Numbered from the stretch's first letter, positions 6,638 to 12,366 are shown. The stretch is 45,442 nt of DNA from a virus (IMGVR_UViG_2534681703_000014:1-45442), one strand, 5' to 3'. Notes: generated by a model not told the origin, from the letters alone. Translations and numbers: made by a program.

Positions 6638-6916
6638 TTAGGGAAACTGGCGTCTTGCGTGGATCACGTTTACTACTTCAACGCTTGATGTTGTTACGCG
6701 GTATAGAATTATATAGTTAGGGTGGGCTACAATCTCACGCAAGCCAGGTACTCTGTCGCTTGGTGGGTATAAATACGGATGTTCGGATAACGGCAGCACA
6801 CAACCCCTTAATCGCTGCCATAAGCGTTCAGCCGCATCTATGTCGAAACGAGCAATATAACTAGTTATATCATCTAGGTCGGTATCTGCGCTTTCAAGCC
6901 ATAACACGGGTAACAT
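6638..6916 (-). CDS. Type II toxin, RelE/ParE superfamily (92 aa from internal ATG)
   Basis: Size, basic C-terminus (...NVIHARRQFP) and pairing with an upstream small RHH-like antitoxin ORF whose stop is 1 nt from this start; family call from remembered ParE-like sequences. Confidence 0.65.
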   Translation of the reverse strand: MLPVLWLESADTDLDDITSYIARFDIDAAERLWQRLRGCVLPLSEHPYLYPPSDRVPGLREIVAHPNYIILYRVTTSSVEVVNVIHARRQFP

Positions 6917-6917
6917 T

Positions 6918-7109
6918 TTACTGCTTGCTCCGTTCCTTGCGCATTTTAGCAAAGCGTTCTGCCATTCTGCGCTCAACTTCGTCATGGGGAATTGCTGGGC
7001 GTGGATCTGCAAGGCTCGTTGCTACTTTTGCACGCAGCCATTCGTTGTAACTGTTTTCTTGTTCAATGGTTTCAAATTCAGAAACCATTGGTGAAAGGGC
7101 TCTATTCAT
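6918..7109 (-). CDS. Type II antitoxin, ParD-like (63 aa)
   Basis: Small ORF MNRALSPMVSEFETIEQENSYNEWLRAKVATSLADPRPAIPHDEVERRMAERFAKMRKERSKQ with strong GGAGG SD; immediately precedes the ParE-like ORF. Confidence 0.6.
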   Translation of the reverse strand: MNRALSPMVSEFETIEQENSYNEWLRAKVATSLADPRPAIPHDEVERRMAERFAKMRKERSKQ

Positions 7110-7129
7110 GTTTCCTCCGGTTTTATAAC

Positions 7130-7501
7130 TCAGGCGCGGCGGCATTTTTGCGCCGCAATCCATCTCGCTATGAGATCTTCCATTGATTCTTTTTTCTGCT
7201 TTAACTCGCTGATTATCTGGCGTTGCTCATCCTCAGGGAAGGCTGAAAAAATCTGCAATAATTCCAGTTGATTAGACGTTAACCCTGCATGTGGTGGAGA
7301 AACCTCCGGTTGTTCTGCGTATTCCGCATCCAGATACCCTTCCGGCATCCCGTATGTTTGCTCTATTCTTCTGGCAGCCTTTTCTCCAAACGAGGCTCTC
7401 CCACTCATTAGTTGAGATAGGTAGCTCTTCTCTTTGGGTGGCAGAGTTTTATCTTTAAACCACTCCTTGAGACGTAAACGGCGAATTTCTTTTTTTTGCA
7501 T
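7130..7501 (-). CDS. Prophage repressor, short HTH (XRE-like) protein without a peptidase domain (123 aa)
   Basis: HTH-like segment SYLSQLMSGRASFGEKAARRIEQTYG; divergent from a Cro-like gene across a 98-bp operator region. Confidence 0.65.
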   Translation of the reverse strand: MQKKEIRRLRLKEWFKDKTLPPKEKSYLSQLMSGRASFGEKAARRIEQTYGMPEGYLDAEYAEQPEVSPPHAGLTSNQLELLQIFSAFPEDEQRQIISELKQKKESMEDLIARWIAAQKCRRA

Positions 7502-7599
7502 GTGGTAATTATCTTTAGTAATCACTAAACAAGCAAATACTTGACTTAATGGTTTATTAAACACTAAACTCTCAAAAAAAACACTAAACCGAGGAAGGT
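7502..7599. promoter_or_regulatory. Divergent promoter/operator region (OR-like) with three CACTAAAC repeats and a TTGACT -35-like hexamer
   Basis: CACTAAAC at 7523-7530, 7562-7569 and 7582-7589; TTGACT followed about 18 nt later by TAAACT upstream of the cro-like start. Confidence 0.55.
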
Positions 7600-7902
7600 A
7601 TGACATTAAAAGAGTTTATTAAATCATTGAGGGTTGGTGATGCTAAGAAATTCGCAGCCAGACTTGGTGTATCGCCATCTTACTTATCGCAAATGGCGTC
7701 TGGACGAGCAGCTATATCTCCAACACGCGCCCTTATGATCGAATCTGCGACGGAAGGCCAAGTAAGTAGGGCGGAGCTACGACCCCATGATTGGGAGCTT
7801 ATTTGGCCTGAGTATGCGAGCGGCATTCGTTTGGGGCAAACACATGTAGTTCATGCTGAAGGTGATTGTAGTGCATGCTTATCTGATGGAGTTGATTCAT
7901 GA
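7600..7902 (+). CDS. Cro/YdaS-like HTH regulator (100 aa)
   Basis: HTH-like segment KKFAARLGVSPSYLSQMASGRAAISP; first rightward gene after the operator, as in Rac-type immunity regions. Confidence 0.7.
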   Translation: MTLKEFIKSLRVGDAKKFAARLGVSPSYLSQMASGRAAISPTRALMIESATEGQVSRAELRPHDWELIWPEYASGIRLGQTHVVHAEGDCSACLSDGVDS

Positions 7903-8324
7903 AAATCAAGCATGAACACATCCGCATGGCGATGAATGCCTGGGCGCATCCGGACGGTGAAAAAGTTCCGGCTGCGAAAATTACCAAAGCGTATTTCGAG
8001 CTGGGAATGACGTTCCCGGAACTGTATAACGACAGCCATCCGGAAGCCCTGGCTCGCAATACTCAGAAAATTTTCCGCTGGGTAGAGAAAGACACCCCTG
8101 ATGCGGTTAAAAAAATTCAGGCGTTGTTACCAGCTATCGAAAAAGCAATGCCACCTCTGCTGGTGGCCCGAATGCGCAGCCACAGTTCAGCCTGGTTTCG
8201 GGAGCTGGTGGAGACGCGGGAACGGCTGGTGAGAGACGCTGATGATTTTGTCGCAGTGGCGATCGCTGGTTTCAACCAGATGAATCGTGGTGGCCCTGCG
8301 GGAAATATTGTGGCTGTGCATTGA
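7899..8324 (+). CDS. YdaT-like protein (CII-position gene of Rac-type immunity regions)
   Basis: N-terminus MKIKHEHI matches my recollection of Rac YdaT; follows the YdaS-like gene with a 4-nt overlap. Confidence 0.55.
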   Translation: MKIKHEHIRMAMNAWAHPDGEKVPAAKITKAYFELGMTFPELYNDSHPEALARNTQKIFRWVEKDTPDAVKKIQALLPAIEKAMPPLLVARMRSHSSAWFRELVETRERLVRDADDFVAVAIAGFNQMNRGGPAGNIVAVH

Positions 8325-8395
8325 CTCGCAATATTCATACCGGATCACTTCCGGCAATTTGTGAGTAAAAAGATTCGGTATCAAAAGAGGTGAGT

Positions 8396-9436
8396 ATGGC
8401 TAACGCCTGGCTCAGATTATGGCATGACATGCCAAACGATCCTAAGTGGCGAACAATTTCCAGGTTGTCAGGACAGCCAATCGCAACAGTGATGGCTGTG
8501 TATATCCACCTTCTGGTGAGTGCGTCACGAAATGTCACGACATGTCACGGTGTGTCACTACGTGGTCACATTGATGTCACGGCGGAAGATTTAGCAAGTG
8601 CGCTTGATGTGACGGAAGAAGTAATTGATTCAATTTTACAGGCAATGCAGGGACGGGTACTTGATGGAGATTTGATCAGTGGATGGGAAAAACGCCAGGT
8701 ACTGAAAGAGGACAATGGCAACGTTTCACAAACCGCGAAATCCCCGGCAGAGCGCAAGAGAGCGCAGCGCGAGAGGGAAAAATTACGAAAACAGAATGAG
8801 GGGGCGCGCGACGAGTCACGCATCTGTCACGACATGTCACGACGAGTCACGACAGATAAAGATACAGATAAAGAATTAAACCCCACACATAACGCGCGCG
8901 TGCGAGAGAGTGCTCCTGCCAGTGAGGCAAATGGCGTGCCGTTGCAAACAGCGGAACCTGATTACCTGGAAGGCCTGAGCGAACCCATCGGGAAATTTCC
9001 GATGACCGATGGCTGGCATCCGTCGCCGGATTTTCGACGACGGGCTGCGCTGTGGGGCGTGGCTCTTCCTGAGCCGGAATTTACACCAGCTGAACTTTCC
9101 GCCTTCCGGGACTACTGGGCAGCGGAGGGCAAAGTGTTCACGCAGGTTCAGTGGGAGCAGAAATTCGCCCGTCACGTAAATCACGTCAGGGCGCAGGCTA
9201 AACCAGTCAGCAAGGGGGTAAACCATGCAGCAGCACCAGGTGGCACCGCATCACGGGCAGTTCAGGAAATTCGGGCAGCACGTGAGCAGTGGGAACGTGA
9301 AAACGGATTTATCAGCGACGGAAACGGCCTGGAAGCTGTGGGAACTCATGGGGGAGGTTTATTCGAACCGCTGGACCCAGAAGAACGGGGCCGCACCTTC
9401 GAAGCTCTGGATTGCACAGATTGGCGCGATGACTGA
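8396..9436 (+). CDS. Replication initiation protein (YdaU/DUF1376-like N-terminus, DnaT-like C-terminal region); O analogue
   Basis: N-terminus MANAWLRLWHDMPNDPKWRTI; AGAGGTGA SD; internal iteron clusters as in lambda O/ori. Confidence 0.65.
   Translation: MANAWLRLWHDMPNDPKWRTISRLSGQPIATVMAVYIHLLVSASRNVTTCHGVSLRGHIDVTAEDLASALDVTEEVIDSILQAMQGRVLDGDLISGWEKRQVLKEDNGNVSQTAKSPAERKRAQREREKLRKQNEGARDESRICHDMSRRVTTDKDTDKELNPTHNARVRESAPASEANGVPLQTAEPDYLEGLSEPIGKFPMTDGWHPSPDFRRRAALWGVALPEPEFTPAELSAFRDYWAAEGKVFTQVQWEQKFARHVNHVRAQAKPVSKGVNHAAAPGGTASRAVQEIRAAREQWERENGFISDGNGLEAVGTHGGGLFEPLDPEERGRTFEALDCTDWRDD
8522..8853. repeat. Two clusters of (T)GTCACG iterons inside the O-like gene; candidate replication origin
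   Basis: GTCACG at 8524, 8535, 8544 and 8576 with GTCAC variants at 8554 and 8565; second cluster at 8815, 8826, 8836 and 8847; followed by an A/T-rich AGATAAAG-repeat stretch at 8852-8880. Confidence 0.55.
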
Positions 9437-9890
9437 GCAGCAAATCCGACAGGTCTGCCGCCAGTGCATGGACCGCTGCCGGGCGGGTGAAACATGGCCT
9501 CCGGACCTGGCTGAGTTTGTGGCACTGATTTCGGAGAGTGGGGCAAATCCATTTGGTCTGACGGTGGATGCTGTGATGGAGGAGTACCGTCGCTGGCGCA
9601 ATGAGTCCTGGCGATACGACGGAAGCGATAAATACCCATGGACTCAGCCTGTGCTGTATCACATTTGCCTCGAGATGCGTTCAAAGGGGATTGAGCGCCA
9701 GATGACCGAAGGGGAATTAAAACGGCTTGCAGAACGGCAGCTGACGAAATGGGCAAAGCATGTTAGTAACGGCCTGAGCGTTCCGCCAGTCCGGCGACAA
9801 CTGGCGGCACCCAAACGCCCGTCGGGACCAACGCCAATTGAGTTACTGAAACAGGAATATGAACGCCGGAAAGCGGCTGGGTTTGTTTGA
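9225..9890 (+). CDS. Replication protein P-like (helicase loader analogue)
   Basis: C-terminal half has lambda P-like pattern (...YPW...[10 protein letters not shown]...); GGGGG SD before ATG 9225; alternative ATG at 9429 overlaps the O stop. Confidence 0.55.
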
Positions 9891-9924
9891 GTTGAGAAGT
9901 AATTTTTACCGGGAGGAAATTTTA

Positions 9925-10686
9925 ATGGAGACCGTTTTTGACGCACTGAAAGCGATGGGAAAAGCTACGTCGGTAGAACTGGCTGAGCGACTTGATATCA
10001 GTCGTGAAGAAGTGCTGAACGAACTATGGGAACTGAAAAAGGCTGGTTTCGTTGATAAAAGCGCGTACACCTGGCGTGTGGCTGATAACAACGTTCAGCA
10101 GGAACAGCCAGCGCCAGAAGAACAGCCGGAAGAAACCTCCACGGCGACAGTAGCGAAAATCTCAGAGTGCGATTTAACCGCGACGATTGAACAACGCGGA
10201 CCACAAACGGCTGATGAGCTGGCTACATTGTTTGGTACCACATCACGCAAAGTGGCTTCAACGCTGGCAATGGCAATCAGCAAAGGCCGTCTGATTCGTG
10301 CTAATCAGGACGGTAAATTTCGTTACTGTATGCCGGGCGATAATTTACCAGCAGAGCCGAAAGCAGCATCGGTAGCGGAAACTGATGGTAAAGCCTTTCC
10401 TCAGCCTGCATGCGTTGCGTTACCAGTACAGGAAGCTGCAACACAGGAAGATATTAAAACAGAGACTGTGGCGGACATTGTGCAGTCGCTGCCATCGTTT
10501 ACTGAAACGCGAGCGGATGACCTGGTTTTACCATCGCTGCATATGGCAAACCGCGAACTGCGTCGGGCGAAAAATCATGTCCAGAAGTGGGAGCGAGTCT
10601 GCGCCGCGCTGCGGGAGCTGAACAAGCACCGGGATATTGTACGACAGATTACTGATTCTTCCCGCCATGTTGCATCGGAAAAGTGA
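9925..10686 (+). CDS. Hypothetical protein with winged-helix-like N-terminus (253 aa)
   Basis: ATG 9925 with GGGAGG SD; N-terminus [29 protein letters not shown] resembles a DNA-binding wHTH. Confidence 0.5.
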
Positions 10687-10701
10687 TTGCCGGAGGCACC
10701 T

Positions 10702-11679: not shown

Positions 11680-12366
11680 ATGACCACAATAAATACGTTT
11701 ATGACAGTTGCTGATTTCAAACGGCCTAAATTGGAGCTCCCAAACGGGGCAAACAAACTACTACTGCACTCTTGCTGTGCTCCATGTTCCGGTGAAGTGA
11801 TGGAGGCGCTTCAGGCCTCGGGAATCGACTACACCATCTTTTTCTACAACCCGAACATTCATCCTCAGAAAGAGTATTTAATTCGTAAGGATGAGAATAT
11901 TCGCTTTGCTGAACAACACGGCGTGCAGTTTATCGATGCTGATTACGACACAGACAACTGGTTTGAACGTGCCAAAGGAATGGAATGGGAGCCCGAGAGG
12001 GGGATCCGTTGTACCATGTGTTTTGACATGCGTTTTGAGCGGACAGCGTTGTACGCTGCTGAAAATGGTTTCAGTGTGATCAGCAGTTCGCTGGGCATTT
12101 CACGCTGGAAAAATATGCAGCAGGTTAACGACTGTGGGCGGCGAGCCGTCGCGCATTATCCGGGAATGGTGTACTGGGATTATAACTGGCGCAAGCAGGG
12201 CGGCTCGTCCCGTATGATTGAAATCAGCAAGCGCGAAAAATTCTATCAGCAGGAATATTGTGGCTGTGTGTATTCTCTGCGCGATACCAATCTACACCGC
12301 AAATCTCAGGGACGCCCTCTTATCAAAATTGGTCAACTCCACTACGGTAAAGAAGAGAAGGAGTGA
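11680..12366 (+). CDS. queH: Epoxyqueuosine reductase QueH family (DUF208)
   Basis: N-terminal [11 protein letters not shown] and later CGCVYS motifs match the QueH/DUF208 Cys signature as I recall it; 228 aa. Confidence 0.7.

Follow-up and report, generated by a model that had tools for sequence, protein, structure and literature searches.

Do the short direct repeats inside an early gene of a lambdoid prophage mark the site where its replication starts, or do they merely follow from the protein that the gene encodes? The question is raised by the gene at positions 8396-9436 of IMGVR_UViG_2534681703_000014:1-45442, a viral DNA of 45,442 nucleotides (the window, numbered from its first letter). 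The initial annotation had noticed about ten copies of (T)GTCACG in two clusters within this gene, followed by an A/T-rich repeat stretch; it called the gene O-like and took the repeats for the origin of the prophage. Our comparative analysis suggests that the locus is likely to be the replication origin of the prophage, situated within the gene that encodes its initiator and organised as a bipartite iteron origin. It is very probably a variant of the lambda design built on an unrelated initiator protein. The gene and the three elements within it that bear on the question are the following.

8396..9436, + strand: replication-initiator gene of 346 amino acids, with its ATG at 8396, six bases past AAGAGG (open reading frame list, Pfam, PHROG, AlphaFold2, Foldseek)
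8524..8581, + strand: iteron cluster 1, six GTCAC cores, encoding the loop of amino acids 44-62 between helix 29-45 and the helix-turn-helix of the N-domain
8815..8851, + strand: iteron cluster 2, four GTCACG cores, coding for the disordered linker at about amino acids 140-152
8852..8880, + strand: candidate DNA-unwinding element, A/T- and purine-rich ACAGATAAAGATACAGATAAAGAATTAAA, recognised as the least stable 30-mer and by its codon bias and shared joint

Sequence reading and pattern search place exact copies of GTCACG on the + strand at 8524, 8534, 8544, 8576, 8815, 8826, 8836 and 8846, and degenerate copies on the same strand at 8554 (GTCACT) and 8565 (GTCACA). Altogether the gene holds ten GTCAC cores, eight of them exact GTCACG, in one orientation and in two clusters, and both the number and the coordinates noticed initially are borne out. 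Successive cores are 10, 10, 10, 11 and 11 bp apart in cluster 1 and 11, 10 and 10 bp apart in cluster 2, or about one helical turn. With Tandem Repeats Finder, the two clusters appear as period-10 arrays (8524-8549 and 8825-8854); a period-12 array of 1.9 copies of ACAGATAAAGAT is placed at 8852-8874, directly 3' of the last core. GTCACG occurs 31 times on the two strands of the 45-kb window against 21 expected; the Poisson probability of eight copies on a single strand within 328 bp is ~3e-14, or ~8e-12 when corrected for scanning. Another GTCACG, at 9171, is taken as a chance occurrence and is present too in the iteron-free ydaU gene of Rac-SA53. An inverted near-copy, GTGAC, lies at 8609-8613, 33 bp downstream of cluster 1, where it encodes D-V-T, and many relatives carry CGTGAC. 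It was considered as a part of the origin and dropped, being missing from several loci of the GTCACG class (L094, L099, L100), though kept in most. No DnaA boxes with up to one mismatch are found at 8300-9500, which leaves no evidence for DnaA involvement at this site, and no known RNA families were found at 7000-10500.

Repeats in a coding sequence may simply follow from a peptide motif that is itself repeated or conserved (here SRNVT/RGH/VT and CHD/SR/VT), or from chance, and have no function at the level of DNA. The peptides SASRNVTRGHxxVT and SRNVT are indeed conserved among relatives. The cores, however, lie in reading frames 2, 0, 1, 2, 1 and 0 in cluster 1 and 2, 1, 2 and 0 in cluster 2; the core is read in all three frames, and one hexamer is therefore translated as S-R, V-T, C-H or G-H. 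When the amino acid sequence was fixed and the codons were redrawn 20,000 times, the expected number of cores was 0.63 in the zone of cluster 1, where 6 are observed (P<5e-5), and 0.53 in the zone of cluster 2, where 4 are observed (P=4.5e-4). Synonymous sites within the cores are frozen. In an ungapped codon alignment of 270 nucleotides from 22 non-redundant relatives (<90% nucleotide identity), the entropy of third codon positions is 0.18 bit inside the cores and 1.46 bit outside (Mann-Whitney p=5.9e-5), and the difference persists for invariant amino acids (0.16 against 1.30 bit, p=6.5e-4). Valine is encoded by GTC, threonine by ACG and glycine by GGT in 22/22 sequences inside the cores, whereas the same residues take all codons elsewhere. 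The number of cores changes in repeat units of 10/11 bp. Cluster 1 has six cores in the window, as in E. albertii; relative to the usual four copies it contains a 21-bp insertion, visible in the alignment, which places seven amino acids (TCHGVSL) in the domain. The initial annotation had named codon repetition of a protein motif kept in iteron-free homologues as the explanation that would compete with an origin; in homologues without recognisable iterons the corresponding loop peptide is itself missing or different. Reading frames, frozen synonymous sites and resampling, along with the improbability of the clusters themselves, already refute a peptide by-product or chance, whose probability we regard as negligible. 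Both clusters, and the A/T-rich stretch as well, are maintained by selection acting on the DNA itself.

The A/T-rich element shows signs of selection of its own. Positions 8852-8880 read (ACAGATAAAGAT)x2-AATTAAA, and the A+T content of 8852-8885 reaches 71%. Judged by nearest-neighbour energy, 8851-8880 (GACAGATAAAGATACAGATAAAGAATTAAA) is the least stable 30-mer both of the gene and of the operon at 7600-10700, and its stability ranks within the lowest 0.2% of the window's 30-mers; the A/T-rich stretch reported past the iterons is therefore real, though short. In most loci of the GTCAC class the element begins 2 nucleotides past the last core as (N)NAGATAAAGA. Across 41 loci, the 40 nucleotides past the last core have a mean GC content of 34%, against 56% for the genes. 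Within 60 nucleotides past the last core, GAT accounts for 93% of the Asp codons (49% elsewhere, p=3e-24) and AAA for 74% of the Lys codons (51% elsewhere, p=4e-7); six of the loci (L004, L139, L113, L127, L133 and L137) entered this comparison with a stray downstream match as their last iteron, which only dilutes the effect. The same preference for GAT and AAA is seen in GC-rich hosts, such as Bordetella and Acidovorax, and the A/T-richness is therefore selected at the DNA level, as expected of an unwinding element.

The two-cluster layout recurs in relatives at about nucleotides 116-180 and 376-450 of the gene, with 3-6 copies in each cluster. It is found in Escherichia phage Tritos (4+5 cores), Aeromonas phage pAEv1818 (4+3 cores, 69% nucleotide identity) and Pseudomonas phage P7869 (4+4 cores, 67% nucleotide identity), and a collection with one genome per species adds about 30 gamma- and beta-proteobacterial prophages; the remainder of each ~2.8-kb locus holds 0-8 copies of GTCAC on both strands. 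Among 80 close relatives in IMG/VR, the clusters combine as 6+5 (49 loci), 6+4 (25), 4+5 (4) and 5+3 (2), and the spacing within clusters is 10 or 11 bp except for two 21-bp gaps that span a degenerate copy. In all, about 45 prophages share the layout. The core differs among subfamilies, yet any one genome repeats a single core in its two clusters. Five loci (L106, L108, L118, L119 and L124) carry GTAACG or GAAACG with the architecture kept, 12 loci of the genome collection and a Manatee Spring phage carry CGAACG, and Ralstonia phage Firinga, at 39% amino acid identity, has 5+4 cores of GCAACG. In about 45/56 loci the commonest pentamer of zone 1 is also the commonest shared pentamer of zone 2. 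The neighbouring genes (repressors, Cro, Rha, CII-like proteins and loaders) differ between phages, and the N-domain is therefore the only constant companion of the repeats. These features define a signature: an N-domain with WLRLWHDMPNDPKWR...GWxxRQ, one 6-bp core repeated at 10-11 bp in the loop segment and in the linker, and then AGATAAAGA. The GTCACG-class form of this signature is present in the window and in about 30 phage and prophage loci of gamma- and beta-proteobacteria, and the family as a whole was found at >580 loci in IMG/VR, while a clustered protein collection yields 947 proteins with E<=1e-5.

Alignment of the gene reveals a mosaic. The segment 8396-8874 is ~84% identical in nucleotide sequence to phages Evi, Tritos and relatives, and 8854-9436 is 93-97% identical to ydaU of Rac-SA53 and genes like it, which have unrelated N-terminal parts devoid of GTCACG. 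The partner switch falls exactly at the shared AGATAAAGATACAGATA element, and the A/T-rich element is common to all six aligned phages while its flanks switch partners. The N-module with its iterons is joined in the window to a DnaT-like domain accompanied by a lambda-P-like loader, in pAEv1818 to a DnaT-like domain with a DnaC-like loader, in P7869 to another C-terminus with a primase/helicase, and in Firinga to yet another C-terminus with a DnaB-like helicase. By these comparisons, the iterons, the A/T element and the N-domain of the initiator travel as one module. The N-terminal module would be origin-specific and the C-terminal module loader-specific, which is the lambdoid logic.

The C-terminal half of the encoded protein contains a DnaT-like domain.

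8996..9199, + strand: coding sequence of the DnaT-like single-stranded-DNA-binding domain, amino acids 201-268 (PF17948, NF002770, PDB 6aep/4ou6)

The only Pfam match of the initiator is DnaT (PF17948), with 65.2 bits against a cut-off of 25 over amino acids 201-268, and the NCBIfam DnaT model NF002770 matches in part. PDB entries 6aep and 4ou6 match the domain in sequence and fold. Foldseek superposes it on 6aeq_A with a template modelling (TM) score of 0.89 at 59% identity, the scores for 6aeq_A and 4ou6 ranging over 0.88-0.93 at 58-59% identity. With a score above the gathering threshold and a three-helix fold, it belongs to the C-terminal domain family of DnaT. PHROG 1408/3729, labelled 'replication initiation protein', match the initiator, and NCBI sources label close homologues 'phage replisome organizer'. 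A Pfam scan finds no match to Phage_rep_O, the family of lambda O, and NCBIfam adds to DnaT only a weak match to phage_rep_org_N: TIGR01714 scores 18.4 bits (E=0.0019, amino acids 5-131) against a curated cut-off of 49.8. PHROG 4880 'replisome organizer' matches over the N-domain with E=1.7e-5. The name O-like therefore suits the gene in its position and function but not in its homology: the domain of lambda O is lacking, the C-domain is DnaT-like, and the similarity of the N-domain to replisome organizers is weak and sub-threshold.

An AlphaFold2 model built on 56 homologues predicts an N-domain that starts with three helices (2-14, 16-25 and 29-45) and continues with a low-confidence loop (amino acids 46-62), a helix-turn-helix (63-70 and 74-84), a beta wing (85-96) and a basic helix (117-135). 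The segment 137-200 is mostly of low confidence and is followed by a confident C-domain that superposes on the single-stranded-DNA-binding domain of DnaT. No solved structure was found for the N-domain by sequence, and a fold search gave only weak winged-helix matches with E>0.4 (CAP, MepR and the RepA_N-type 4pta/4pql). The label winged-helix-like accordingly describes the AlphaFold2 topology only. Cluster 1 falls within the coding sequence of the N-domain, outside the inter-domain linker, and encodes the low-confidence loop, where the predicted local distance difference test score (pLDDT) is ~64-68; cluster 2 and the GATAAA repeats encode a part of the disordered linker (pLDDT <50 over amino acids 137-173). 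In terms of the model, the iterons seem to sit where the protein tolerates them, in a surface loop in the case of cluster 1 and in a disordered linker in the case of cluster 2 and the A/T element.

The surroundings of the gene are those of a lambdoid prophage. The window carries a lambda-type integrase, a gpA-type terminase, a lambda-family portal, a tape measure and a J protein, and its rightward early operon, located past a divergent racR-like gene, runs through ydaS-like (Cro/helix-turn-helix) and ydaT-like genes to the initiator and a gene with a lambda-P domain.

9429..9890, + strand: lambda-P-like helicase-loader gene (PF06992 Phage_lambda_P, 60.7 bits; PHROG 109 'P-like helicase loader'; annotation of STEC388 and Rac-SA53); the start follows the RefSeq orthologues, an ATG overlapping the initiator stop, and the frame is open upstream to 9225

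Three hallmarks of an intragenic origin of the lambda type thus coincide at this locus: at least three direct repeats in the same orientation inside an initiator gene, an easily melted A/T-rich region adjoining them, and a helicase-loader gene immediately downstream of the initiator gene. The layout and its conservation at the DNA level support the origin proposed initially. Initiation at such an origin might proceed as follows. Several copies of the initiator would use their N-terminal winged-helix-like region to bind the cores, which face the same side of the helix within each cluster, and the two protein-coated clusters, ~235 bp apart, might be bridged into a loop or a wrapped complex. The resulting stress, together with transcription through the gene, would melt the adjacent AGATAAAGAT stretch. 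The DnaT-like C-domain could then hold the single strand, recruit the neighbouring lambda-P-like loader and with it the DnaB helicase of the host, or do both.

In lambda and Stx phages the origin lies within O and consists of iterons (four copies in lambda, six in Stx phages) and an AT-rich region, followed by P (PMC7466680). The present locus resembles them in the placement of the putative origin inside the initiator gene, in the direct repeats with an A/T-rich region downstream and a P-type loader gene next to it, in the combination of an origin-specific N-module with a loader-specific C-module, and in the variation of iteron copy number between relatives. It differs in its initiator, which is not a homologue of O and ends in a DnaT-like domain, and in its cores, which are asymmetric, 6 bp long and repeated with a period of 10-11 bp, whereas lambda has contiguous iterons of ~19 bp with internal symmetry, located in the inter-domain linker. 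The sites of the present locus are moreover split into two clusters ~235 bp apart, one of them inside the coding sequence of the N-domain.

In Bacillus phage SPP1, where gp38 binds the origin, gp39 is the loader and gp40 the helicase, oriL likewise consists of direct repeats together with an unwinding element rich in A and T within gene 38 (PMC6316719), and the initiator is of the 'replisome organizer' type. SPP1, however, has a second origin copy, oriR, elsewhere in its genome and a Gram-positive host, and the window has a single repeat locus; no sequence relationship between the two was found, though no search aimed at it was made. The replisome organizer N-family (TIGR01714 / Phage_rep_org_N) of lactococcal and other Firmicute phages shows weak similarity to the N-domain, and its iteron sequences are unrelated. 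In several lactococcal P335-type phages the origin maps to repeats inside the replisome-organizer gene. Satellite phage P4 also carries one short repeat in two clusters away from each other (ori and crr), each of them a binding site of its initiator, the alpha protein, but the clusters of P4 are kilobases apart and its initiator is a primase-helicase, whereas here they are ~235 bp apart within one gene. A description of the origin of this initiator family was not found in the searchable literature, which misses much older work and makes this weak evidence.

A comparison with ydaU-type prophage genes, suggested initially, holds for one half of the gene. The gene occupies the same genomic position as ydaU/ydaV of Rac, after racR/ydaS/ydaT-like genes, and its C-terminal half and the loader gene are 93% identical in nucleotide sequence to ydaU/ydaV of Rac-SA53, with a shared GATACAGATA...AATTAAACC linker. 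The N-domain of Rac-SA53 YdaU is unrelated, it is encoded without GTCACG cores, and the match is confined to 8854-9436. We therefore reject the identification of the gene as a Rac ydaU-type initiator. An active origin, oriJ, has been reported for Rac (PMC3945230). The ydaU gene of Rac-SA53 (L003) contains at 2441-2473 a perfect 10-nucleotide inverted pair, TGTTCAAACA/TGTTTGAACA, just upstream of the shared GATACAGATACAGATCTAAAAGAATTAAACC linker, and the initiator of the ydaU-type module may have its site in this pair.

Several observations weigh against an origin at this locus. The case for origin activity is made by comparison, and the binding of GTCACG by the initiator is presumed from it. 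The A/T-rich stretch is short (~30 bp), so that a 60-bp window placed there falls only to 40% GC, and it doubles as the mosaic joint; part of its conservation could reflect recombination history. The helix-turn-helix helices are nearly identical in subfamilies with different cores. The distance between the clusters keeps no constant helical phase in positions compared across loci, and we make no claim of a phased loop between them (distances from last core to last core, taken by hand, are ~249-270 bp and share no phase). One locus (L125) has cores only at the second position. The latter speaks for repeats that serve as sites of the initiator or a partner for regulation, through autoregulation by a transcription roadblock or copy control by handcuffing, with replication starting elsewhere; or for a mixed arrangement, in which cluster 2 and the A/T element form the origin and cluster 1 acts in regulation or as an enhancer. 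Cluster 1 does lie ~235 bp from the A/T-rich element, in the region coding for the N-domain, and close relatives differ in the copy number of one cluster independently of the other. Plasmid iterons, too, serve both initiation and control. We nevertheless consider a regulatory role of this kind unlikely. The least stable A/T element is fixed 2 nucleotides from the last core of cluster 2 in most GTCAC-class loci, as expected for an unwinding element, pattern search reveals no further iteron cluster or comparable element elsewhere in the window, and the same arrangement is the origin in lambda and SPP1 (PMC7466680, PMC6316719).

Still less probable, and in our view very unlikely, is that the repeats have no role in replication and are read by another factor, such as a host protein, a repressor or the terminase, or serve as a recombination 'linker' for the exchange of modules. 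The exact mosaic joint at AGATAAAGATACAGATA, common to initiators with unrelated N-domains such as Rac-SA53 ydaU, speaks for a linker. Recombination linkers, however, need neither a strict phasing of 10-11 bp nor a single orientation. GTCACG cores are found only with this N-domain, other cores accompany diverged subfamilies of the same domain, and the neighbouring genes differ between phages; sites of a host factor would not be expected to change their core between subfamilies that share host groups.

If the locus is an origin, its most unusual features are that the iterons share their bases with the codons for a loop in the N-domain of the initiator itself, and that four natural specificity classes exist. 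The loop encoded by cluster 1 reads SRNVTRGHxxVT with GTCACG, NATERGRTQ with CGAACG, and NAVKRGETQCNA with GTAACG/GAAACG, and no other segment of the N-domain differs as much from one iteron class to another. All core classes end in a 3' ACG, and the 5' half of the core is variable. A 9-amino-acid insert, GNPETGAKS, past RQxKRED was considered as a determinant of specificity and set aside, as it does not track the iteron class cleanly. It is conceivable, though rather doubtful, that the origin and part of its reader are written in the same nucleotides, the cluster-1 loop helping to read the variable 5' half of the core. A change in the iterons would then alter the reader at once and provide a built-in route to new origin specificities. 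The locus supplies a probable origin and a DNA signature (two phased clusters of 6-bp cores, then AGATAAAGA) for very common prophage initiators whose N-domain has no Pfam model. The four natural specificity classes, GTCACG, GTAACG, CGAACG and GCAACG, may be of use in studies of the evolution of initiator-origin specificity and of replication compatibility between co-resident prophages, and in the design of orthogonal replicons. The locus also provides a clear case of overlapping constraints, in which protein coding and protein binding would share the same bases and the mosaic joint falls exactly at the putative unwinding element.

A similar layout was observed in another initiator family. The initiator of Escherichia phage TL-2011b (L005) has no detectable similarity to the N-domain (BLASTP E=1.5), and its gene contains a 28-nucleotide element, GTAACGCTGGCAGCGTTACAAAAGGAGT, at 2240-2267 and again at 2449-2476, 209 bp apart, followed by GAAGATATATATAAAACC. 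One copy of GTAACGCTGGCAGCGTTACAAAAGGAGT lies in the part coding for the N-domain and the other in the linker, which amounts to a bipartite design in a different family. As TL-2011b shows the same layout without similarity of the N-domain, placement of sites in the N-domain part and in the linker may be a general design of phage initiators of the replisome-organizer type. The N-domain of the present family, in turn, was found from position 1501 of two loci, a Serratia metagenome-assembled genome (L130) and Pantoea sp. (L136), fused to a C-terminus with YVYYV...GISRNPWAR that resembles, by eye only, the GIY-YIG nuclease motif. Both loci are without iteron clusters, and they suggest that the N-domain has been re-used outside replication initiators.

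Transcription through the putative origin could come from a site upstream of the early operon.

7541..7570, + strand: promoter-like site TTGACT-18-TAAACT, from a consensus scan only, upstream of the early operon transcribed through the origin

The number of promoter-like sites in the consensus scan does not exceed the shuffle expectation. At the other end of the gene, the P-like frame stays open as far up as 9225 and shares 212 nucleotides with the initiator gene, in the +1 frame. The Pfam lambda-P match begins at residue 56 of this long frame (~9390), before 9429, and PHROG 15931, a single profile of 482 amino acids, runs without a break over the initiator (1-345) and then the long P frame (4-221). 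Because the lambda-P match begins at ~9390 and PHROG 15931 covers both proteins, the start of P may be mis-annotated, or fused O-P forms may exist.

Database entries for the initiator from E. coli often stop at the end of a contig and are marked 'partial', perhaps because assemblies break at this locus; among E. coli genomes with at least one match to the 3-kb replication region, the median number of matching places is 2 and the maximum 9. On the - strand of the window, at 6638-7163, a RelE/ParE-like toxin open reading frame and a RelB-like antitoxin open reading frame stand between the racR-like repressor and the early-left genes, labels that agree with the orthologous annotation of E. coli STEC388. 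A homologue of the epoxyqueuosine reductase QueH (PF02677, E=1.6e-65), unusual cargo for a lambdoid prophage, is encoded on the + strand at 11680-12366, in the early or nin-like region.

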